Source of the DNA: Octopus sinensis
Lineage: Eukaryota
DNA length: 64,000 nt
Assembly: GCF_006345805.1 (NCBI RefSeq)
Contig: NC_043001.1
Coordinates: 68,696,001 to 68,760,000 of the forward strand
Reading direction: 5' to 3'
Part shown: positions 1 to 64,000 of the stretch, one piece after another
Position numbering within the stretch: position 1 is the stretch's first letter
How the letters are laid out: each line of letters begins with the position of its first letter
The notes under the pieces: model-generated
Told to the model about the DNA's origin: nothing
Databases searched by the model: none
The model's input: only the letters and a program-made list of their open reading frames with translations
Translations under genes and position numbers: made by a program

Positions 1-3000
1 ACAGACACCTCTTCTCCAGCCTGATTTTGATACTGAGGTGGTAACTAAAAAAGTTAATCAACCCCTGGCCGGAGACAAAGGTGCCTGTCACTATACCTTT
101 CGTACGCGTCTTCCATACTGTTTCTTTCAGTATGGCTACTACACAGAAAAAACAAGCCTTTCTTTCCCTGTTAAGGAAAGGGGGCGGCACAATCTCGATG
201 ATAGACTCAGCTGATAGCTGTACTCTTCCCATCACCGACAACAGTTGTTCAACAAAAGCTATCAGTCCCGATAACTCCGGACACTCCACGAATGCGTGCA
301 AGACGGTCTCCCTATCCTGCTCACATCGCGGGCATGTCGGCGAGACGGCACTACCGTGCCTTGACAGCTTGTCGCGAACAGGTAAAGCCGCACGGAAACA
401 CTGCCAGGCCAGGGATTTCTGGTAATTATCCAGATACCCCGGCCCGAACGTCCTCCGGAACAGGTTGACCAACTGATTTTCATCGTAGCCCAGGGTCTCC
501 CCCAAGGCGTCTTCGGACTTAATCTCCACTAACCCGCTATAGAAATCCGTGGTGGAACTCCTGTTGCCGGCGTTGCCCACCCGAGATAGTAGCTGGAGCG
601 CCTGACGGCACTCCAAATGCCATTCACTCAGTTTAGGTCTCCGCTTGATCCATGCACCGATGTCCGTTAGGGATGTTAACTGGGGAAGGTAGAACCGGAC
701 GTGCGGTGACCACACCTGCTCTCCATCCAGGTAAAGCCAGAGGTGCCTCAACCTTAACGCGAGTTTTCGCATCCTCAGCCAAGGCATCCCTAGCCCACCC
801 TTTAGCGGTTTCTGGCAGCAGACAGAGCGCTTTACAAGTGGCTTTCCTCCTTTCCACAAAAATCGGAAAAGGATTCTCTCCAACTTGTTCAGCCACAAAT
901 CGGGGCAAGGCACCACGGTCAGACGGTAGGTGATTACTGATGCTATAAACATCTGCACCACCTCCACCTTCCCTAGCAGGGATAACGCCCGCCCAGACCA
1001 GGTCTGGGTTTGAGCGGTCACCTTGCTGGCCACCTCACTCCAATTTTTCTCTATCTGGAGGTCTGGCCCGAACCAGACTCCGAGCAGCTTAACAGGACCT
1101 TCCGTCCAACGCCCTACGACGTTATTGGACGGTATCGGCTTGCCCCTCCAGGTGCCGAGTTGCAAACCGACCGACTTGTCCTTGTTCACCTTTGCTCCTG
1201 CCACCGCCTCGTAGCTTTTGATGGCCTCTTCCACCACTGGAAGCTGGCCTTCGTCTGCCACGATGATGGAGGTGTCATCCGCATACGCCGTAGCTCCTCT
1301 TCCACACCATAGATCATGCGGCGCGCCCCCTAGTGCCTCCAACTTCCGCAGCAAAGGCTCAAGAGCCAATACGTATAGGAGCGAGGACAGGGGACACCCT
1401 TGACGAACTGAATGCTCGATCCTGAACGGCTTCGAAAAGGAACCGTTCACCTTGACTACAGACTCGATGTCGCTATACAAAGCAGCGATCCAACCTCGAA
1501 AGGTCGGGCCTAGGCCAGCCTCTCCGAGGACCGCCGCCAGGTACCGATGGTCGACCCTATCAAATGCTTTGGACTGGTCTAAATGTACCAGTGCTCCCCC
1601 TGCGCCAGAAAGCTTCCCCACCCTCTCTAAGGAGTAGCGTATAAGGTGGAGATTGTCGTGGATCGTTCTGCCGGGGATAGCGCACGTTTGCGCTTCCCCG
1701 ACAAGTTTGTCCACGACCAGCGCCAACCTTTTTGCTAGCACCTTGGCCAGAATCTTTAACTCTGTGTTTAACAGAGTTATGGGCCTGAAGTTCCCTATCT
1801 CGTCCCCCTTGTTCGGGTCCTTCCTGATCAACGTCACCGCCCCCCGGCTCGCAGACTTGGGAATTCTATAAAATTGGCATACTTCTATAAAATTCATAGG
1901 GCAGACCATCGAGACCCGGCGACTTCTCCCCGGGGCACTTGCCCAACACCTCGATTACTTCCTCGGCTGTGATTGGCCCTTCACAGCACTCAGCCTCTCG
2001 TGTCGAGAGGCGCGGTCCATCAGACAGGAAGTCCCTAAGGGCCTCACCATGATCCAGCGTCCCGCACCTCCCGAACAACTCGGCGAAGTGCTTGTGAAGT
2101 GCCGCACACATCTCGTCCCGCTTCTTGATCGTGCATCCGTTTTCATCAACAAGAGACCCAATTGTGGAATAGTTTCCACGCTGTGTTTCTATCGTACGGG
2201 CCCATCCGGCAACATTAATTCCCTCACGGCCCAATGCTCGTACTTTAGCCCGGACTCTACATCCCTCATGTTTGGTTTTGAGGTGACGGTCTAATGCCGT
2301 TCTCGCCGCTAAAATGTGAGATGCAGAGCCCAACCTCAACGCCTCCTCTAACTTCTTAACTAGTTGCCCTTCTATTCTAGCCCTATCTAGTCTTAGTTGT
2401 TTACTAAATCTAATGGACTCGAATCGAATGGCTCTTTTGAGGGTGAACCACCACCGGTTATTAACCACGGCTCCGGTTAACGCCCTCTGCACTAACACCT
2501 TAATCCGGCTACGGTATGCCTCGCGTGTCAAAGTAGACTTGTTCAGCTTCCAGTAGCCGGTTCCTATCTTAAGTGTGCTATCTATGTCCAGTCTACACGT
2601 GACCATTCTGTGGTCAGTATAGGGCACCTGGACGAGCTGTGGACAACTAAAACTAGACTTATCTCTAGTTCTTATCACTATCCTGTCTAGATAAGACTTG
2701 AACCTTCCGTCGCCACTCATCCAGGTCCACTCTGGGACGTTCGGATGGTCAAGTCTGTAACGATCTGCCAGCTGAAACCGCTTAAGCAGATCCACGAGAC
2801 GTGAGTTCACTTTCCTATAGATCGAGCCAACGCTATCGATGTGTACGTCAACGATAGCATTAAAGTCCCCTAATATCACTAAAGTCTTCGACGTCACGAG
2901 AAAGCCCTCTAGGCGCCGATAAAAATCAGTTTGGAAACCTCTAGCACAAGGTGCATAGAGTCCGATCAACCTGAAGGCCTTACTGCTGTATGTCACATCA

Positions 3001-3286
3001 AGGACGCCAGCCCACCTTCTGGGTCTACATAGACTGTACTTGTCTGTAGAGCCAAGTCTTTACGGATCAGTACCACTACGCCCCCTCGCCCTCCGGTCTG
3101 GCCAGGAGACATGATTTTCTCGTAGCCATTCAGGAGAGGCGAGAAGGTTTGTAGGCTGTCCAGCTTGGTCTCTGTAGCAACCATCACATGTATATCATGT
3201 GATCTGAGGTCGTCGAGGAAACAAGCCTGCTTCCACTTCGAACTCAGACCACGCACATTTAAACAACCAAGGTTAAGCGAAGCCAT
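1..3286 (-). pseudogene. LINE ORF2 (APE endonuclease + reverse transcriptase + CCHC), frameshifts near 3000 and 1870
   Basis: EN motifs CLNVRGL, ATETK, GDFN, SYLDRI, TDH, GYWKLN and KSPGLDGLP. Manual translation gives RT motifs NFRPITLLN, LDQSKAFDRVDH, VRQGCPLS and AYADD, then CPRC..ETVLHAFVEC. The RT frame appears open to base 1. Confidence 0.92.
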
Positions 3287-3303
3287 TACAAAAAGTAAAA
3301 GTT

Positions 3304-4704
3304 CTACTTACATTTCGTTGGAGAGGTGGGGGCCGACCTCACCACACGTTTGTGGGCCCCTTCTTTCTCCTCTTTCTTCAGATAGTCCGGCAAGTTCGCG
3401 ATATGCCGGATGGCGTTTGGGTGTCTGTCTTTTAATTGTTTGAACGTTGTTTCCGCAATCCACGCGTGTCTATTTCGATCTTTGTATTTGTTGTACAGTC
3501 TTGCTGACTGAATGTGAACCACAATATCGTTTATGTATTTGTCTTGTGTGTCGAATTCAATTAATATGAGTTCATTTTCTTTTTTGTCTTCTTTTTCTGG
3601 GCCAGTTGAGCGGGATTTTTTTTCCGTGTCTGTGGTGTGTCTTTGTTTTTATTATTTTTTGTAGGGGATGTGGACGGGGATGCTGCACGAATTCTTTTAC
3701 GAACTGGTGTAAATCCCCCCTCTGATACCTCCATGGTATCGTCTGGGGTAGCAATAGTTTGTTCGGTAGGCGCCGCAGTTTTTAGGGGGGTGGGAGGTTT
3801 TAATAGTGTAGGGGTTTGTGAGTGCGAGGGCTGGGTTTTTTCTTCAGTCTGTTTTGGGGTTGGCACCGTAACAGCAGGAGTGGGATTTTTTGTTTTTGTA
3901 GGGGTAGGTGTGTTTGCAAGGGTAGGGACTTTTTTATTATCTGAGGGGCCTGGTGTCTGCGGTTTCTTTTGCTTGTCTGGACAGTCTACACGAATGTGGC
4001 CCTTTTTGCCGCAGGCGTAACAGGTGGGTTTTCGGCCTTCGACCTGTACCCTGAGGGCTACGTTCTCGCCCACGAGCACCCTCTCAGGAAGGAGCTGCAG
4101 GTCCTCCGCTGTTCCTTGAATTAATATATTAATGTTACGCCCGAGCCAAAATAGAGGGGTAGAGCATGTTACTTGTAGTATTTTTATTTTGTCCGCCCTT
4201 TTATATAACAGGGCGGCCACTACCTCTACCGGATCTACTTCCGGCGGGGCTTCTACAATCCTGACCCGGGACGTCCTGCGTCCCCTATAGCTTGGGAAAA
4301 GTACCACCTCCTTGGTTTTTAGGGGGTTCACAGAATGCCCGCGGGCCATTTCTTCCCCCGAGAAGCGGACATCCACAGTGCCATATGCCCGTCCCCTGGC
4401 GACGTACACGATGTCCTTCCAAATCGGGGACAGGCATTTCTCGATGGTGCTTTTTTCAAAGTGTTTGAACCTTCTGCTTTGTGGACAGAAAGTTTTAAAC
4501 ACTACGGTCCGCTTCTCGGTCCCACGATACTGGCGGAGGGTGATATTTTAACATCACCACCCTCCTCTTGCATTCTTTTAAATAGCTCGACGAGCTGATT
4601 ACATCGATGTCAATGTTCTCGGTAGCCACTGCGGCTACCGCAGAAAATTTTTTAACATTGCTCTCCTCAAGAGCACTACTTTCGTGAATAATTTCAACAG
4701 ACAT
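3304..4704 (-). pseudogene. LINE ORF1 (gag-like, zinc knuckle), split by about 2 frameshifts
   Basis: ORFs 4495-4728, 3561-4502 and 3304-3522 abut. Contains CYACGKKGHIRVDC (CX2CX4HX4C) followed by a Pro/Thr/Lys-rich low-complexity tract. Confidence 0.85.
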
Positions 4705-5499
4705 TATTCTGTTGAAATTAGACAACACAAAAATTACGAATATTGGTTTCCCACAAAACTGGGAAACCTATAGAAAGTTTTTCTTCCAAAGTAGTTCAAA
4801 AAAGCAGTTCAAAAATTCCAATTCCCACCCCCATTCGGGGGAGGGGCACGAAAATAGTCTGGCAGGACTATATATAGTCACGTAAATAAAAAGCCACAAT
4901 GGCTAACAGTTCAACGGTAAGAAATTATCCAATTATTCCCCGGTAAAACCGGAGAACAAGACAGTTCAGCAACGTTTAAATACAATTTTTCAGTAGTAGA
5001 AATTCAACAATTAACAACACAGCAAAATTCTTACCGGGAAGAAAACGCGTCCAAACCGTTGTACGGTAAGCAAAGTCACTCTTCAGTCAGTGAGGTTAGA
5101 CAAGCTACTTACCACACAGCCACTCCTGCACCTGAAGATTTTGTAACGAATAATAATTGTCAAGTCAAATTTTATAGAACAACAGTGCTAATGCGACACA
5201 AAAGGTTTCATGCGAAAATTTCTTACTCATTCAATTGTAGTTTGAGTGATTGCGGAAACTCAGCCAACACGACGGAGAACTGTTTTTAATCTTTTATCTT
5301 TTACATGTTTTCAAATATTAGACTGCGACCATGCTGGGGCGCCACCTTGATTTTGCTTTTTGTTAGTCGATTTATTAGACCGAGTATTATTTCTCAAGCC
5401 CGGTACATTAATCAATCCATCCATTTTGTCGAACCGCTAAGTTACGCAGACGTAATCACACCGACACTGTTTGTCGTGTTTGTGTGGACAAATACACAC

Positions 5500-25717: not shown

Positions 25718-26421
25718 GAGTGTAATTTGATGAATTAAAGCGTTTGGTTCCTCCCATCGCCAAGATGCTTTTGCTTTTCAGCATATAGATGTTTAAATAT
25801 ATGATCCTTTAGTCTATGTGGTCTAATAACAGAACATCTAGTTTTTGGGAGAGCATTACATTATACTATTTCCAGGGATGCGATATTAATATATATATAA
25901 TTGTCTACATTGTTAGAAATATGCTCTAATGCTGCAGTTAACGCACATGAATGAAAACATACGTTTTAACAGTGACCTGAATCATCCGAAAAAGTCTGAT
26001 CGAGAATTCTTAATACTGACATCAGTTTTTGGCAATTTCCGTTGCTTCATTAGTTAAGTCCGTTCGATCTTCGTTATTTTCCAAACTTGCTTCACTATTG
26101 GTATATATGTTTTTGTCATCTAAATTAACGGAAAATTTAGCGATTCACTAATGTGTATACATAAAATTAATATAAACAGCAGGTTACAATGTTTTACTAA
26201 ACAGGGTGAATGATAATTGTCTCTAAATGTGACTTTTGTCTTATCCTCGCACACGTTCGTTAGCCTTTTCCTGTAGCTCCCGTTGATAATGGTGGTCTTG
26301 GTTTTAATTAGCGTGAAACTACTAAGTCGTCTCGGAAACCAACAGATGAAAAAATCCTTGTATCGTGCTTTTGTTTCGTCTAGTTTTCCTTTCTCTGTCT
26401 AACTTTCGAAATATATATATG

Positions 26422-26825
26422 TGCAGGCGTGGCTGTGTGGTAAGAAACTTGCGTTCCAACCACATGGTTCCGGGTTCAGTCCTACTGTGTAGCACCTTGG
26501 GCATGTGTCTTCTACTCTAGCCTCGGGCCGACCAAAGCCTTGTGACTGGATTTGGTAGACGAAAAATTGAAAGAAGCCCGTTGTACATACATACATACAT
26601 ATATATATGTTTATGTATTTGCGTGTTTGTGTCTGTGTTTGTTCACCCACCATCGATTAACAACCGATGTTGGTGTGTTTACGTCTCCGTAGCATAGCGG
26701 TTCGGCCAAAAGGTCCGACAGAATAAGTACTAGGCTTGCAAAGAATAAGTTCAGGGGGTCGATTTCTCCGACTAAAAAAGGCAGTACAACAATCATAATA
26801 ACTGAAGCAAGTAAAAGAATAAAAA
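26422..26825 (+). mobile_element. tRNA-derived SINE (gcaggagtggctgtgtggtaag family), full length
   Basis: Head gtggctgtgtggtaagaaacttgc..gggttcagtcc, internal microsatellite, tail actgaagcaagtaaaag; several copies in the window. Confidence 0.88.
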
Positions 26826-26899
26826 AAAACATACATATATATACGCCACCCTAAATTTTGTCTTTCTCTTCACCTCCTGTCAATCTTCTACTTTTGTTT

Positions 26900-44055: not shown

Positions 44056-44440
44056 ACTGTGTGGTAAGTAGCTTGCTTACCAACCACATGATTCCGGGTT
44101 AGGTCCCACTGCGTGGCACCTTGCACAAATATCTTCTACTGTAGCTTCGAGCCGACCAAACCCTTGTGAGTGTATTTGGAAGGAGGAAACTGAAAGAAGC
44201 CCGTCGTATACGTATATATGTGTATGTGCATATGTTTGTGTGTCTGTGTTTGTCCCCCCACCATCACTTGACAACGGATGTTGGCGTCTTTACGTACTCG
44301 TAACATAGCGGTTCGACAAAAGTGATTGATAGAATAAGTGCTAGGTTTACAAAGAATAAGTCCTGGAGTCAATTTGCTCGACAAGAGGCGGTGCTCCTGC
44401 ATGGCCGCAGTCAAATGATAGAGACAAATAAAAGAATATA
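44056..44440 (+). mobile_element. tRNA-derived SINE (26422 family) with an uninterrupted target site ggtaagtagcttgcttacc
   Basis: ctgtgtggtaagtagcttgcttaccaaccacatg...catggccgcagtcaaatga. Confidence 0.88.
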
Positions 44441-44675: not shown

Positions 44676-46243
44676 ATATATAATATATGTATGTATATAT
44701 ATATATGCATATCTGTATATGCAGGCCCATAGAGAGGATGACCGATATCAAGACATTAATTCTTATTAACATTGTTGCTTTGTGTATATCCTTCATTTTG
44801 TTTATTACTTTTTTTTGCATTCTTTAATAATATAACACATTCAGTTTTATACAAAAATCTGAAAACGTCTTGAGATGTTTATAGTCAAAAGCAGTTGCTT
44901 GCAGAATAGCTGATAACATTTATTTCCTTCCATGTTTGTATTGATTTACTTAAAATGAAAAAAGAAAAAAATTTCTATTATTTATTGAAAATATTGTACA
45001 AAATAGTTTTTTAAGATTTAGAAACGCAACGATAAAACTAGGAGAAAAGTAAAAAAACAAAAAAGAAAAAAAAAAAAGTAGCCATTAACAAAACATGATT
45101 GTGTTTCGGTTCTGTCCTGGTTTTCTATTTCCAGTCGGTTAGGAAATTGGGTTTGTGTTTCGTGTCACATTATAAGATGTAAGGCCAGAGATAAGGAGTA
45201 ATTTATAATCAAATATGACGTGCTTTGTTTCCTTAATTAAATGAGAGAAATAAAATGTAAATCGCGCCTACGCAGACAAACTCGTGTGGACAAATGAACA
45301 GACATAGATATACATACATCCAGGGACAAGTACAAAAATAAAGGAAAAGACATTTATGATTTGTGTCTGTATATACGGTGGTCCTTACAGAAATGTTTAT
45401 ACATGTAGACATATGTGTGTATACAAGTATGCAACTACGTATGCATGTATGCAGTATGCATGCATGCATTTATATATGTATGTATATATATGTATTTAAG
45501 CTTGCATGCTTGTATACCTATATATATTTTAGTGGAGACGTATGCATGACGATATCGCTCTATAAAATAGCAATCTAAAAAAGATACGGATGTGTATGTG
45601 TATATGTGTGTATGTATGCATATATGTGTGTGTATAGGTATGTAATTATATAAGTCTATGAATGTACATATACATATACACATGCATTTATATGTATACG
45701 TGGCTGTGTGCTAAGAAGCTTGATTTCCAACCCCATGGTTCCATGTTCCGTTCCACTGCGGGGTACCTTGGCCAACTATAGCCTACGGCCGCCCAAAACC
45801 TTACGAGTTGATTTAGTAGACGGAAACTATACACACACATATGTCGAAAGACGCCTGTTTGTGACGTCCTGTTTTTGTTATTATTATTATCATTATTGTT
45901 TTTACGTATTATTATTATTGTTTTTACGTATTTTTGTATTCATATTCGTATAACATCGTCCGTTTTCCGTCTTTGTTTTGTATACATTCGAGGCTTTCTT
46001 TCCAGGAATCTAATGCGCTTAGCTTAGATTTTCCTTGGGGATGGCCAAATCGGAGCAATCTCAAGATTAATCAGCCGAAATTGCGAGGATGATCCGGTTC
46101 TTGACTGAAGATTGAAGGCTTCGAATGTCCCGTCCATGTTTTTTGTATCGTCTTCTAAATGTTTTGTGTTTTTGTCCCAGTTTGTATTTTTTTACATTAT
46201 ATATATATATATATAGCGACGTACGTACTCTTTGTCTTATATG

Positions 46244-48306: not shown

Positions 48307-49570
48307 AGAAATGGTGCTCCAGCAAGGCTGCAGTCAAATGACTGAAATACAAAAAGTATACATATATATGGTATATGTGTGTGTGTGTGTTGCATATATG
48401 TATGTGTGTGTGTGTATGAGAGAGAAAGAGAGAGAGAGAGAGAGAAGAAGAGAGAAGGGGATAAGAGAGAAATTATTGGTAGATAAATCGACAAATGCAT
48501 AAATAGGTGAGCGGACAGTTACATTGAGTTGGTAGAAATAGGTGCACAGCTAAGATCATCGGAGTGTAAAATTCTCTTTAATGTTACAGCTTGAATCAAT
48601 CGTTTAGTTACAAAAGAAGTAAAGCAAGACATGCAAGAACACGCTATGGAAATCCACATTGTTGTTCGTGCGCGAGAATTTCGTTCACACCGCTGCATGC
48701 ACAAATTATATTCTCATAAACACATGAACGGTCTACATTCTCACTAAGGTTAAGTGGATAATATTTAGCTTTTACATGTTACAGTAATTAGACTGCGGTC
48801 AGGCTGGAGCATCTCTTTCAACGATTTAGTAGAATAAATCCATCTCAGTAAGTTTGTATCCTTGAAGCCAGGTAGTTGCTCTATCGATGGCTTAATGCTG
48901 AACTTCTATGTTTTCGGGTTCTTAAACCATCACAGGAATTGCGGGGTTTCAAACAAAAACACAAAGAACAGTCGGGGTACAAACATAAAGATACAATTAT
49001 GTATACACACACACACATATATATATACACAGGCGCACACATTAAGAGATGGAAGGTAGCGTTTCGGGTATTCGTTATGGATGATTTCTTATATATATAT
49101 ATATATATATAGGAAGAAATATTTATTTTTTCAACGCGTAAGTACTGATAGAACAGCAAATGTAGGATATAGTCCTTACAGAGCAGAAAAATCTGTCAGC
49201 AACCAGCCATGAGACTCGAACTAACATCACTTCAATTTCCAGTCAAAGTGCTTTACTATGTAAGCTAAACTGCTTTACTGACAAATTCTTCTGCAATTTA
49301 GAAATTATAAACTCATATAAAAAAGTTAGATGGAATAGAAAATACGTCATATGTAAACAAACATAGGTTTGGTTTTGAAGCGCTGATATGTATTGTGGTA
49401 CATGTAGAAAGATATATTTTTTCAACTCGTAAGTACTGTTAGGACAGCATATATAGGTTAAAATCCTTACAGAGTAGAAAAATCTATCTGCAACCAGCAA
49501 TGAGACTCAAACTTCAATACATTTCAGCGCTTCAAAAAATAAACTTATGTTTGTTTACATATGGAGGTAA

Positions 49571-57356: not shown

Positions 57357-59397
57357 TTCGTGTATATATATATATATATATCGTTAAAATCAATATAAAC
57401 CGCAAGTTGCTATGCTTCTCTAAGAGAATTATAATTGTTACTAAATGTGACTAGGATGTTAAGAAACATCTAGAAATGCGAGGTAACATGCTCTAATACT
57501 ATAGTTACCACATATGAATCAAAATATATACACAAATAGGGAGCAACCTGAATCGTCCAGAACATGCATACACACACAGACACACACGCACATACACACA
57601 TATAAACACATACACACATACATATACAGGCATGACTGAATTTTTTCCGCGCGTGTGTCTGTGTATGTAAGCGTATCTTAAGGTTTATGTGCCTCTATGT
57701 GTGAATGTGCGTGTGTAAACAAGTCCCCGCCTAACTAGTTCTGTCATACTGATCACTGGTTTCAGTGACGATGACACGCTGTGAAAAAATGCTGGGTTCA
57801 TGAAATCTAGTGTAGCAAATATAGTGTAGCATGAAATTGAGTATAGCTTGATCTTGTAGCAATTCCCATGATCAAGTTTCGTAAGAGGCTTCACTAAACT
57901 ACTAACTTCGTCACAGTTAATACATTTTGGTTTCAGCCTCTGTGACTACAGGTCTCTCTTTACGCTCGAAGGGCAAATTGCACAATACAGTCATGCATAG
58001 CCCTGTACAAATCTAGTTATTTTGACCGTAACCCAGCGGGATGCTGCTCACAACGGAGAAGAGTGGAAGATACATAAGTTCGGGTCATCAACATATTACT
58101 ACCTCTTCGTACTAGTCGCCATCGCTCCTTGAACAGTCGAGAACATCGCTCAGTAGATGGGCTGTTTCTCTCTTTCTTGGTGACAACACTTTTACTCTAC
58201 TATTCATGAAGTGTAGGCGAGATAAATTATTGAATAGGAAATGTAAAAGTTGTTTATTTCAGGATTTTTGCTATCACTTCATTGCGCAACAGTTAGAAGG
58301 AAGTAGTAACTTATATTTTTAAAATTGATTTCAACCAAAAATAACTAAGTTAAACACGAATATTTGCCAAATATATTGATTATTTTTGCACCGGAAAAGA
58401 ATCATTTCTATAAGGAGCAAGAGAAATATATGTTGTTATGTTGTCATAAGATTTTAAAATCTGTATCTTTTCATATCAGATTGGACATCATTGCTGTGAA
58501 CAGAGAAGGCCGTCACATATTAGAATTGTAGTTTGATCTTATACGAAGATTAAACATTTTTATTATTTATTTGAAAGCTAAGTTGGATCAATATAAACGT
58601 CGTTTATATAAGATATATGGTTCAGTAAACTCAGAAGCAATCTGAAATCTGGATATAAATATGATATAATAGCATAAACTGTCGGAAAATTCAGGCAGTT
58701 TGGCATGTTATATAATTAAAGGGATCTCCCGTAAAACTTTATTGTCAAACAAATTTGAATATATTCCAATTTATATAATGGAGGTAGTCTTGGAGGAGAT
58801 ATATATGAGCTTATTACATACAAAGCGCAAAATCATTCTTTAACATGACTGTGACATCGACTGATTAGGTTTTAACTTGAAATGCATTGAAATATTAAAG
58901 AGAATACTTCAGCCACATACAAAAAAGTATGGATTAAGTAGCATGTCTGGTTGATCAAGGTTTTATCTGAAATTTAAAATGGCAATACTAATCTCAATGC
59001 TTTTTGCTTCAAAAACCCATTGAAGCTTCTTAATGTTAATATCAACACCAGGTAGTTTGATGTGGAAATGACACAAAAACATACTTAAGAATATGTAGAA
59101 AATTCCTGACAAGGATCGGGAACCATATATTATTCAATGTCATGTCTGTTATTGCTACAGCTATTCGTTGTTGATAATACTGTAAGTACTTGTGAATTGT
59201 TAGTGGCATTAAAGAAAAAAAAAGAAAGGCCTCTGTAGATATGATGTTGAATGTATTTCTGTGACATTCAGGCAGAAGGAGCTGGAGAGTGGTCGGGAAG
59301 CAAATAATTCGAGAGGTAAGTAGAGATAAATATCCATGGATTAGAATAGATGTAGATAGAATAGAGACCGGCTTCTATATATATATACTTTCTTTTA

Positions 59398-59750
59398 AAC
59401 TTTTACTTGTTTCAGTCATTTGACAGTGGCCATGCTAGAGCACCGCCTTTAGTCGAGCAAACGAACCCCAGAGCTTATTCTTTGTAAGTCTAGTACTTAT
59501 TCTATCGGTCTCTTTAGCCGAACCGCTTTGTTACGGGACGTAAGCACACCAGCATCCGTTGTCAAGCGATGTTGGGAGGACAAACACATACATATACGAC
59601 GGGCTTCTTCCAGTTTTCGTCTATGAAATCCACTCACAAGGCTTTGGTAGGCCCGAGGCTATAGAAGACACTTTCCCAATGTGCCACGCAGTGGGACTGA
59701 ACCGGGACCGTGTGATTGGTAAGCAAGCTACTTACCACGCAGCCTCTCCT
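59398..59750 (-). mobile_element. tRNA-derived SINE (26422 family), empty target site
   Basis: ggtaagcaagctacttaccacgcagcc is intact at about 59718-59744. Confidence 0.88.
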
Positions 59751-59779
59751 ACATATATATATAAATACATACATTCTAT

Positions 59780-60081: not shown

Positions 60082-61020
60082 TATATATACGACAGGCTTC
60101 TTTCAGTTTTCGTCTACCAAATCCACTCACAAGGCTTTGATCAGCCCAAGGTGCCATGCAGCGGGACTGAACCCGGAACCATGTGGTTGGTAAGCAAGCT
60201 ACTTCATTTCATAAATTTGCCATACAGCCTTACAAAGATGTAGCTGCGGGATGGACAATGGCACAAATGATAACGCAATGAAAAAATGAAAAGATGGTTC
60301 ATGGTGGAAGCAGACAACGCCGCTGATTGCTGCTTTCCGAAAACATTGTTCTCTTTTTCTCAACAAAACAAAATGAGGTATTCAACCTCTTACCAAAGTT
60401 CCAAGAATGGACGCAATCGTCCTTAGAGGATGAGGCGCTGAATCTCTTACCCAAAAATAACAAATTCAAATTTTAAATCGAGGCATTAAGGCCTCTTACC
60501 TTTCCTCCCCGACCATGCAACTTGCCTCTCGCAGACAATCCTGCAGTTCTAAGTCGGGGCTCCAGAAAGCAAAACTGTATTGGTCCTTGGGAAAGGAATC
60601 CATCACCCTGAACATATCATTTTCCTTTATGACCTGCGCAGTTACCTGCGGAGGCCAATCCGGGTCTTCTGTCCGGCTCTCTAGCTTCTTCACAAAGCTT
60701 TGTACAGCCTTCCCTTATGAAAGAAGCTCACAAATTCATCCTCCATCATAATAGGAGGGGGCCACAGTTTCCTCCGTTGGTGGCACAAATCCCACCGACG
60801 AGGTTTCAGGACATGCCGGCAGTGTACTACAAATCGCCGGCAATGTCCCATTCTTTTGTTTTTTCTCCCTTGTGCTACGGAAGGGTGTAGTTCTTCCGCT
60901 TTATCCCTCCCGCAGCCTTGGGGTCCTTAGGTGGGCAACCATTGTTGCCCATCTTCCTTTTTTTCCTTTTTTACGAGGTGCGCGTAAGCAAGCTACTTAC
61001 CACACAGCACTTCCTGCGCA
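59780..61020 (-). mobile_element. SINE (26422 family) interrupted in its head by a 779-bp insertion
   Basis: Body at 59780-60204, head at 60984-61020. Confidence 0.88.
60205..60983 (-). mobile_element. Unclassified retro-insertion with a 15-bp TSD
   Basis: gtaagcaagctactt at 60190-60204 and 60984-60998; more GC-rich than the flanks; frameshifted ORF ending at 60496. Strand is inferred from that ORF. Confidence 0.8.
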
Positions 61021-61039
61021 TACACATATATTAATTTCA

Positions 61040-61680
61040 AGGAAGTACCAAATTCTAATCTCCTTCAAAGTAGGATCCTCTGACCTCAATGCACTTATAG
61101 CGCTCCCTGGCACTTCGAAGAGTCGGCATGGAAGTCCTTGAAAGTGAAGCTGTCCAGTACTAGGTCGCATTTTCTTTCATCTCAATGTCTTCAAAACAGA
61201 TGCCCCTGATATTATCCTTCAGCTTTGGGAATTAGCAAAAATGTCCCAGGAGGCAATGTCTGGACTGTAAAGGGTGAGAGACAGTTTTGATGTCCGTCTC
61301 TTTCAAGTAGTTTGTTACTAGGATAGAATTATGTGCTGGTGCATTGTCCTGGTAGAGGTCCCACCGACTCGAATATAGGAGCTGTGGCCTTTTGTAAAGA
61401 AAGTTCTTTCTCATATCCGTGGAAACTATCACAAAGTACTCTTTGTAGACCGTTTGGCCAGGGGAACACAATAGATGTAGATCTTCGATGAACTTGTTTT
61501 GGCTGACACTCTTTGAACATTCTGTCACTTAGTCTTTGTATCATCTTTGGACTATAAAAGTAGATCCAGTTTTCATCGAAGGTAATGAGCTCAACCATCT
61601 GTCAACATGTCAGTTGTGACAAGTAGTGATTTACAGGATGTCTTCAAAGCGCACTTACATCCGTCTCCTTAAATCCTGAA
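61040..61680 (-). mobile_element. Degenerate mariner transposase fragment
   Basis: LITFDENWIYFY, WDLYQDNAPAHNS..VSHP. Confidence 0.8.
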
Positions 61681-62694
61681 TGAAAGGTTATATATAAAAA
61701 TTATATGTGATAAATGTATAAAAAAAATTTCTATTGGTTTGGTAATAGATACGGTTCAGAAAAGATATAGACGAGTAGCGATCTCATCAATATATGTCAT
61801 ATTCAAAATCAAGCATAGATGAAAGTTTGAAAATTGACTGTTATAATATGTATCTTGTAAGACTTACGTATAAACCCTTATTCATGAACATATGGAAATA
61901 AATATTCAAATTAATGTGTTTACACGCTGGCACTTGTATATCTATACATAGTTACTCAGATGTATTTATTTGAATCGCCGTATATATACATATAGCCATG
62001 TGTATGCATATATATATATGTATATATATGTTTGTACTTACACAAATGTATGCATATATATTCGTACATATACACGTGCGTATATCAGCACAACTTATAT
62101 AGTAATAATTACATATATAGACTATGTTAAAGTTATATGTTTTTAATAAATAAATACTATTAGAAAAGATAGGTTGTTAGGGTTAGGTTTTGAGGGGTTT
62201 AATGTTTAGAATTGCTCAGTTAATATGTTAGAAAATGAAAAAAATGGACGAGTGGTGGGAAGGAAACATAAAAGTATCATATAATGAAATAAAACAGAAA
62301 CTAGTAGAATTTAAAGGAGCATGTATTAAGGGATATATTATAATGTAGTGTAATGTGCTTGTAATAATTAGTTATTAGCTATATAAATAGGTAAATTGGG
62401 GATACAGATGTGCCAAAATGTAAACTTGAATTTGAATTTCCATATATTGATGAATAACGACCTATAAGATACATATTATAACGGGCAGTTTTCAAACATT
62501 CATCTATGCTTGATTTTGAATATGAAACATATTGAAGAGATCGCTGTTCATCTATACCTTTCCTGAACTGTATCTGGTACCAAACCAATTGAAACAATTT
62601 ATTAATTTGTATGTATAACCGTTGAATAATAGTTTTATATCTTCTAACCCATCCTTTATTTATTTTATTATATAAATTTCCCCCTTGCATTTCT

Positions 62695-64000
62695 TTTTCA
62701 TCGTGACATCATCCAGTCAGGTCGATTGCCCGGGCTAGCCTGACTACCTCTCTCCTTCCCTCCCGATCTTCCATTAGTGTTTTTAGGTCTCCAACTTGGT
62801 ATCCAACATATTTTGCAAGGTGTTGTATATACGTCTTCTGTGGTCTTCCAGCCGCTGTAGTACCATGATTTGATGTCCACAGCAACACATTACAATTTCT
62901 TCGTTGCTTCTCAAGTAGTAGTCAGCAAACCTCAATCTCTGCTCTTGGATGGTTGAGGAGAGAGTCGATATGTTCCTATATAGCCGTTATTTTGTTGGAA
63001 GTGGCCTCCAAGAGATGTTGAGCAGTGCACGTAACATTCTCATGTAGGAACTGTCCAGCATGCACCTGAGTCTCTTGGTGAGAGGCCAAGTCGAAGATCC
63101 ACACACAAGCGCAGATTCAACAACTGCTCTAAAGAACTGTCTCTTCAAATCATCTGGTAGGATTGATTTCTGTATTGTTCTAAGACCGTCTATAGTTGCC
63201 CAAGCCTTAGCAACTCAAGATTTGATATCTTTTTCAGTGATCACAATATTGTTGCTTAGGTTAGTAAACCCATTTACATTTTTCAATGGTTTGTTTGATG
63301 GTCCTGATTTCACCCGTTGTGTTCAAGGTGATAAACTCTGTCTTCTTTTCATTCACATATAGTCCTATGTTAGAGGCAACATTTTCCAGGAGATGGAGTA
63401 AATGTTTAGCATCTTTTGTGTTATCTACGAAGAGCGCTATGTCATCAGCATAAGCGGCGTCAGTCAAATAGGTTGTCGGATATCTTCCGCTTCTAGACTT
63501 CTGTTAAGTGTAACCCAGATCATAATCGAGACACAAGATGAACAAGTAAGGAGCCAATTCGACACCCTGCAGTACTCCTACACGAACATCAAGAAGTCAG
63601 TATCTCCATCTGGTGACCGCACTTTCGCTCGGGTGTTTATATACAGCATCATTACTGCCTTTTATTGTTTCATCAGGTATTTCTTATACCCTAAGAATTT
63701 CTGCCATCTTATCTCTGTGTACATAATCAAAAGCCTTGCGGAAATCAACAAAGAGCAGAACTGCAGTAAGGTTTTTGGCTTGTACTCCTTCCAACGTCTT
63801 CCTAACTTTGAGAATTTGGCCAAATGTAGAGCGGCTCTTGCTAAATCCATTTTGATTTTCCCTAAGAAATCTTTCAATTTGAGGATGGATTCGATTAAGT
63901 AGCAATGCATTGTAAATCTTCGCTGCAATTGGTGTTAATGTAATTCCTCTGTAGGTTATAGCAGGGCCCAAATCCCCTTTTGTGGGAGAAAGGCAGAATA
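62695..64000 (-). mobile_element. Degenerate RTE-clade LINE RT and 3' end
   Basis: YRGITLTPIAAKIYN, NQNGF..RST, FVDFRKAFDYVHR, AYADDIAL. Confidence 0.88.

Follow-up and report, generated by a model that had tools for sequence, protein, structure and literature searches.

Does a retrotransposon lineage of Octopus sinensis use a SINE as its dedicated target? The question is raised by a 64,000-nt stretch of contig NC_043001.1 (positions 68,696,001 to 68,760,000; hereafter the window). A preliminary description had placed a Tx1-like LINE and, about 55 kb away, a different 779-bp insert at the same site in two copies of one SINE family. The 5' junction of the LINE (5091-5134), the insert with its 15-bp target-site duplication in a second SINE copy, and empty sites at about 44063 and 59718 were all present as described. 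The two elements also share one orientation, with the 3' tail of the insert, which is common to the LINE, pointing towards the SINE body. Taken by itself, the window gave six matches to the target motif with three mismatches allowed, a borderline result in that 2 of 100 shuffles reached six; the searches reported below covered the genome (2.72 Gb). The features of the window are listed in Table 1, where family A denotes the LINE family.

Table 1. Features of the two occupied SINE copies and of the empty SINE copies in the window.
Feature	Position	Strand	Remarks
Family A LINE, full-length, 5394 nt	1..5099, about 296 nt more left of the window	minus	97.9% identity to copy L119
ORF2 remnant, reverse transcriptase and zf-RVT	2..1954	minus	Pfam
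ORF2 remnant, APE-type endonuclease part	1866..3059	minus	PF03372, E 4e-5, slightly below cut-off
ORF1 remnant, CCHC zinc knuckle	3561..4547	minus	PF00098, E 1.5e-5
Target-site duplication AAGTAGCTTGT, 5' copy	5100..5110	minus	second copy at L031:5694-5704, beyond the window
SINE head upstream of family A LINE	5111..5134	minus	A-box-like TGGCTGTGTGG at 5122-5112
Empty SINE copy, diverged target	26411..26843	plus	AAGAAAC variant
Empty SINE copy, intact target	44057..44440	plus	
Partial empty SINE copy	45682..45828	plus	AAGAAGC variant
Empty SINE copy, intact target	59376..59753	minus	
15-bp duplication, 3' copy	60190..60204	minus	followed by SINE body (to about 60095)
5'-truncated ORF1-only copy, 779 nt	60205..60983	minus	member of a family of about 2.1 kb; 3' tail common to family A
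ORF1-like protein, C-terminal remnant	60496..60714	minus	53% over 34 aa to L224 ORF, E 2e-10
15-bp duplication, 5' copy, and SINE head	60984..61020	minus	duplication part 60984-60998

The left part of the LINE was recovered by extending the sequence beyond base 1, as the preliminary description had proposed. The 3' end was located at G000:C5:68695705, where the element terminates in GAAATA with no poly(A) tail. A second AAGTAGCTTGT comes next, and the SINE body after it; the LINE thus splits one SINE. On the minus strand, its own first bases, CTAACC, correspond to 5099-5094, and at this locus a T stands on both sides of the LINE where most SINE copies have C. The window copy is broken, with about 47 nt gone near 1870 and five single-base gaps; some of the gaps are possibly assembly errors. 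Among the 57 family A copies longer than 5 kb, a single copy, L133, has retained ORF2 as one open frame (about 1,130 aa). This copy contains the complete endonuclease domain (PF03372, E 3e-11), and about 25 residues of its ORF2 look frame-shifted relative to the window copy. Since the copies are about 98% alike, family A is young; given one open frame among 57 long copies, its activity at present is no more than a possibility.

The flanks of family A were then determined in a sample chosen blind to them, namely the exact matches to one internal 22-mer. Of 90 matches, 80 were analysed, and the remaining ten, on small contigs, were left out. The SINE body began downstream at the same base in 72 of the 80 copies (in one of them a base off). 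In five copies the target core was followed by the 5' end of another family, inserted in tandem at the same site; in one (L151) the target core lay outside a SINE, and two copies were elsewhere. Chance would place about 0.004 of the 80 copies at the SINE site (0.001-0.015 when 57,000 to 1,000,000 sites are assumed), and the genome-wide flanks are therefore not random. Upstream of the 63 full-length copies, a SINE head was present in 54 (53 scored by script and L099 by eye); eight copies were preceded by the 3' end of another element and one by other sequence. The 17 shorter copies comprised six with a SINE head, one of them nearly full-length, seven without a head, three off-SINE copies, and L110, which was split by a later insertion. 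In the fetched DNA, the target followed downstream although the head was missing in truncated L114, L127, L141, L152, L160, L163, and L164, and in full-length L144. The best 30 matches to the 5' end gave a SINE head upstream in 27 cases and another element's 3' end with the target core in three, and 28 of the best 30 matches to the 3' end were followed by the SINE body. The target-site duplications measured about 9-16 bp and were absent in a few truncated copies. Orientation was equally uniform: junction patterns of 27 and 24 nt detected at least 551 sense junctions at the SINE site versus one antisense junction (L264), which is a real 33-nt insertion of an element end with a 12-bp duplication. 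The near-palindrome once pointed out as a feature of the target consequently has no symmetric role. Family A and its shorter ORF1-only relatives occupy one exact base, in one orientation, of a very abundant tRNA-like SINE, and the sequence-specific insertion of both elements proposed from the window holds genome-wide. Of the two outcomes that the preliminary description had named as refuting it, a LINE 3' flank other than the SINE body and random genome-wide flanks, neither occurred.

Two further arrangements were noted. L151 has a long duplication and lies in a short repeat containing AAGTAGCTTTG. At L221, L136, L325, and on contig C20 near 22.53-22.54 Mb, different families form head-to-tail arrays within one SINE, with the target duplication separating the members.

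A shared site might also reflect descent, if one ancestral SINE-LINE composite had been copied as a unit through read-through, transduction, or duplication. The full length of 63 of the 80 copies, the nearly uniform 5' junction, and the missing head in seven truncated copies fit such an origin. The divergence of the two partners does not. Mean identity was 96.9% for the LINE 3' ends versus 88.3% for their SINE bodies, with r = 0.03 over 68 copies, and SINE bodies next to LINEs at least 99% alike were themselves only 88.6% alike (452 pairs) and fell into two subfamilies, both of them occupied (28 and 27 copies). The SINE head was kept upstream of copies truncated to 26, 27, 116, 733, and 1,634 nt (L098, L112, L150, L153, and L167), and variants private to a locus were present in both duplicates flanking the insert at L098, L099, L137, L150, and the window copy. 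The head-less copies lacked an outer duplication, and at least ten other sequence groups occupy the same base. The three common forms of the 5' junction were dispersed over the LINE tree of 46 copies (16 changes versus a shuffled mean of 17.8), a distribution that left inheritance of junction variants from master copies unsupported. Because truncated copies keep the head, duplicated variants are locus-specific, and LINE and SINE divergence are unlinked, we concluded that the insertions were independent; copying of a composite is largely refuted, and we give it hardly any weight. Weight is smaller still, practically nil, for random insertion followed by selection or assembly bias that left only the SINE copies, neither of which could place 72 of 80 copies at a single base in a single orientation.

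We next considered what the SINE offers as a target. GTAAGTAGCTTG occurred 136,012 times in the genome, as compared with 120 for a control, and its H-prefixed form, with another first base, occurred 6,129 times (control, 681). Because the SINE supplies nearly all such 11-mers, an 11-bp preference would lead to about 99% SINE sites without any further cue. Filled sites (at least 551) make up less than 1% of the approximately 136,000 available. The cut falls directly after A-box-like TGGCTGTGTGGT and so marks the 3' boundary of this box, which was assigned by alignment to genomic tRNAs together with the A-box consensus. The earlier naming of the A-box region as the target thus needs correction: the cut lies at the edge of the box, and the duplicated bases AAGTAGCTTG belong to the SINE and were found in none of 15 sampled tRNA genes (six isotypes). 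Likewise, disabling of the polymerase III promoter had been suggested. In an occupied SINE copy the A and B boxes are pushed 2-5.4 kb apart; for the SINE family as a whole the suggestion is rejected, considering the small fraction of filled sites. The SINE may serve as a safe harbour for the LINE.

The SINE head resembled sampled genomic tRNAs, with z 4-5 for Lys, Ala, Phe, and Thr among six isotypes sampled and the best matches to Lys(TTT) and Ala (z about 5). Rfam analysis of one SINE copy yielded no tRNA match up to E 5 and AT-repeat noise only. Octopus tRNA-derived SINEs named OK, OR1, and OR2 were reportedly described by Ohshima and Okada in 1994; the tRNA-like head is common to these and to the target SINE, which may be the OK SINE. 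Preference for a TAACC subfamily was not seen: 37 copies had A and 34 had T at that column, and the exact empty sites of the two forms numbered 27,325 and 30,114. Heads were tandemly repeated in 116 SINE copies, some three or four times. They are a weak sign of whole-head co-transcription: in the first 30, 28 belonged to plain SINEs and two preceded family A. In the window, ARAGORN also called a degenerate-looking tRNA-Ser(GGA) at 49199-49275 on the minus strand.

The 779-bp insert had been described as a different element, and it proved to be an ORF1-only, non-autonomous relative of the LINE. It is not a complete short element, as its relatives reach about 2.1 kb. Thirty consecutive junctions on contig 1 formed 14 groups at 80% identity, most of them without ORF2 similarity. 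In complete ORF1-only copies a single ORF encodes about 400 aa, including a CCHC knuckle that scored close to or below the Pfam cut-off. In 20 such loci, hand-picked from 150 protein matches, the SINE head was upstream in 20 of 20, and downstream we found the SINE body in 18, a tandem insertion in one, and no end in one; head and body lay 2.0-2.4 kb apart in the 13 loci measured. A family-A-type ORF2 followed ORF1 in none of the 20 loci (one weak 29% RT match lay inside a 3-kb insert). These elements make up several families, 65-92% alike, and a homologue of their protein recorded from Octopus sinensis is 59% identical. ORF1 of the ORF1-only elements is under purifying selection: dN/dS was 0.14-0.23 at dS up to 0.73 (four copies, 161 codons). 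By these values, they are lineages of long standing in which ORF1 has been retained, as opposed to recent deletion derivatives. HeT-A of Drosophila provides a parallel for a targeted ORF1-only element.

The ORF1-only protein matched family A ORF1 with 25% identity over 196 aa (E 9e-20), and because this identity is so low, family A need not be the partner; L299 and L300 represent other SINE-targeting autonomous families. A 3' tail with a hairpin is common to family A and the ORF1-only elements. The hairpin has four pairs and is 89% paired, and two pairs changed on both sides give modest support, as 30 of 500 shuffles reached that count. The family of the 779-bp insert is looser in its choice of site: 15 copies were in the SINE, eight at sites beginning with AAG only, and four elsewhere, among the 27 copies reaching the 3' end (three of 30 matches do not reach it).

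Several further features of these elements were observed. One ORF1-only family (L327, L328, and L332), which starts with CTTCC, was found only in the AAGAAGCTTGCTTCC variant of the SINE (3/3); timing or matched 5' bases may account for this restriction. A GGTAAG or GGTAGG motif lies 60-130 nt into the 5' UTR in L224, the flanks of L133 and L134, and the window (about 5030), and T-rich DNA follows it ahead of ORF1 in several families; the motif may be a splice donor. To the right of the second SINE head, window positions 61030-61700 have, by eye, the look of a decayed Tc1/mariner transposase on the minus strand. On the plus strand, a 166-aa open frame at 63402-63902 had no Pfam match.

Protein comparison was used for classification. 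ORF2 of L133 matched PF03372, PF00078, and PF13966, corresponding to an N-terminal APE endonuclease, a reverse transcriptase (RT), and a C-terminal zinc motif. Family A ORF2 aligned with human L1 ORF2p at E 3e-65 over 860 aa and with R2 at E 6e-20, in a comparison limited to clades with solved structures. By these matches, family A is classified as a non-LTR retrotransposon of the L1 group (L1 and Tx1). Membership in the Tx1 clade is likely; no named Tx1 protein, such as Tx1L, Keno, Kibi, or Koshi, was among the listed matches. Family A ORF1 matched PF00098 only, with no Transposase_22 or RRM match in Pfam; RRM/CCHC variants of ORF1 in non-mammalian animals have been tied to Tx1 (PMC5203782). 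Target preference of Tx1 elements has been defined as more than 20% of flanks in one repeat (PMC4494074), and in family A 72 of 80 flanks are in one repeat. An RT homologue with 64% identity to family A was present in Argonauta hians, and a protein-cluster atlas returned generic RT clusters only.

Relatives were examined at twenty loci with 73-86% RT identity. The 3' end of one sister family lay in (TC)n in 7/7 loci (L295-L298, L301, L302, and L314) and that of another in (ATT)n in 6/6 (L303-L305 and L310-L312). Both of these families are young; their open ORF2 reaches up to 1,145 aa, and tandem arrays of them occur. L299 and L300, two additional types that target the SINE, were each seen at one end. 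A further group, family X, had no single clear target. Its members L307 and L309 have the target CCACTATTGAAAAGAC in common; TATAAAA precedes this target by about 30 nt in L309 and is also found shortly upstream in L306 and L313; this family possibly inserts near promoters or in another repeat. In an RT tree (quick search, midpoint root, unnamed outgroups; four database proteins and two loci dropped as anchor motifs were missing), the SINE-targeting types formed one group (SH-aLRT 97) with family X as its sister, followed by the (TC)n and then the (ATT)n family. A switch of target from microsatellite to SINE would be the simplest reading of this tree. Endonuclease identity to family A was 50-58% in the sister families (one mis-cut row left out), and that of the RTs was 73-78%. 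A large protein group, P0002-P0137, with about 50% RT identity, was the sister group of the octopod families.

In our judgement it is highly probable that the single site and orientation result from nicking of the bottom strand of GGT^AAGTAGCTTG by the LINE endonuclease, and that ORF1-only elements are copied in trans via the shared 3' tail. The individual steps, namely the nick site, the 11-bp recognition, the read-through tail, the target-like 5' bases, and the microsatellite origin, are those that we infer as follows. The first strand would be nicked at 5'-CAAGCTACTT^ACC-3', a position that follows from established knowledge of APE-type elements and from the junctions, and reverse transcription would be primed there. 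About 11 bp of sequence recognition would be sufficient for SINE specificity. Transcripts of family A would extend 10-30 nt into the target, and pairing of this tail with the nicked strand could set the position of the 3' junction. Such run-on is suggested by the 3' end of the element, GAAATA with no poly(A) tail, and by the placement of AATAAA, which was within the last 60 nt in 0/80 copies and spanned the junction in 78/80; sister families have AATAAA 6-9 nt before the junction. Target-derived RNA ends pairing with the primer strand are a model from R1- and R2-type elements. At the other end, target-like bases (TG)CTAACC on the RNA would aid full-length joining. Of the 24 full-length copies with TT in their own target, 21 had CTAACC at the 5' junction; these bases therefore belong to the element. 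ORF1-only elements would be mobilised in trans by the same enzyme through the common 3' tail, and the SINE-targeting lineage would have arisen from among microsatellite-targeting relatives. No RNA run was found among the sequencing runs listed. Contigs of four runs contain the LINE. One run was guessed to be RNA, and there a contig of 756 nt contains the LINE and then 23 nt of target and stops, as either read-through or, equally, a graph break in a high-copy repeat would leave it; the contig is therefore given no weight here.

TRE5 and Ty3 find their targets via the RNA polymerase III machinery, and tethering to this machinery at the SINE promoter, instead of an endonuclease preference, would agree with a cut that is strand-specific and coincides precisely with the 3' boundary of the A box. 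However, no family A copy (0/80) ends in a real tRNA gene; off-SINE L151 and the off-SINE copies L065, L078, and L088 of the ORF1-only family share AAG(T) and have true duplications; sister families lie in microsatellites; and from the abundance of the 11-mer alone, about 1% of sites would be expected outside the SINE. We consequently regard tethering as very unlikely. Less remote, yet still improbable, is a weak TT^A preference of the endonuclease with most of the specificity provided by pairing of the read-through RNA tail, a self-perpetuating guide. The lack of a poly(A) tail, an AATAAA completed by the target in 78/80 copies, the invariant 3' junction, and an older family with AAG only at 8/27 sites are consistent with such guiding. 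The endonucleases diverge more than the RTs (50-58% vs 73-78% identity), as if the nuclease carried the change, although faster nuclease change is also common without a target switch. No RNA end in the target was observed. RNA guiding is compatible with nicking by a specific endonuclease, to which it could be a contributing step.

A broader model, which we propose tentatively and rate at rather below an even chance, is a three-tier parasite system. The SINE would be a working part of the LINE, completing its poly(A) signal and giving guiding RNA ends that favour full-length copies, and long-lived ORF1-only elements would exploit both this site and the LINE enzyme. The switch from microsatellites would have followed the flooding of the genome by the SINE, leaving paralogous endonucleases for (TC)n, (ATT)n, the SINE, and possibly promoter-proximal sites side by side.

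How APE endonucleases gain and change specificity is poorly understood, as stated for microsatellite targeters (PMC3812793). Closely related families with the SINE, (TC)n, and (ATT)n as their targets, several with open ORF2, make a natural comparison of target change, and their presence in the same genome allows endonuclease specificity to be tested directly by domain or loop swaps. A SINE as a dedicated target would widen the known list of Tx1 targets, and targeted ORF1-only elements under purifying selection pose the question of the role of ORF1 in cis. For gene insertion based on retrotransposons, precision to a single base together with about 80% full-length copies is of interest as well. 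The insertions do not matter for control of the SINE, with less than 1% of its sites filled.

Among known systems, the insertion site of Dada DNA transposons, like that of family A, is at or close to a polymerase III A box; they use a DDE transposase and hit real tRNA genes at nucleotides 8-13, and the word SINE does not occur in the main text on them (PMC8869645). A 2026 annotation of Octopus vulgaris reports 13 recently active L1-Tx1 families, with targets unmentioned in its main text (PMC13282606). In the literature covered, including PMC4640811 and PMC4758252 as far as their available text goes and excluding Repbase and most subscription journals, neither a SINE-targeting LINE nor a SINE target with ORF1-only riders was found; Repbase and the supplements of PMC4494074 and PMC3531059 may list a SINE-targeting Tx1 family. 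HAL1 (half-L1) is a non-autonomous element encoding ORF1p only (PMC5753468), derived from mammalian L1, whose site preference is weak (PMC5753468, PMC3812793). The ORF1-only octopus elements resemble it in having ORF1 and no ORF2, but with a CCHC-type ORF1, a fixed target, and no Transposase_22 they are not HAL1 proper. Kibi and Koshi are fish Tx1 elements specific for (TC)n and (TTC)n (PMC3812793, PMC4494074). The closest octopus sister families, in (TC)n and (ATT)n, are like them in the type of target, and family A, unlike them, would have left microsatellites. Tx1 elements that target other transposable elements are already known: Tx1L inserts in Tx1D, Tx1-Mar in Mariner-N4_AMi, Tx1-9_AMi in Harbinger, and Tx1-8_Crp and Tx1-4_AMi in LTR elements, other Tx1 targets being U2, 5S, and microsatellites (PMC4494074). 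What is new here, with respect to the literature searched, is a SINE target with ORF1-only riders. Family A is similar to these Tx1 elements in being an L1-group APE-RT element with a site preference in another repeat, in its tandem insertions with a duplication between them, and in having non-autonomous passengers with the same target, as SINEU is in Tx1 systems (PMC4494074). It differs in that its target is the head of a SINE, a class not named among the Tx1 targets in the available text of that report, in that 72-77 of 80 copies are at one base, and in that its passengers code for ORF1, whereas those of the Tx1 systems are snRNA-headed SINEs (PMC4494074).
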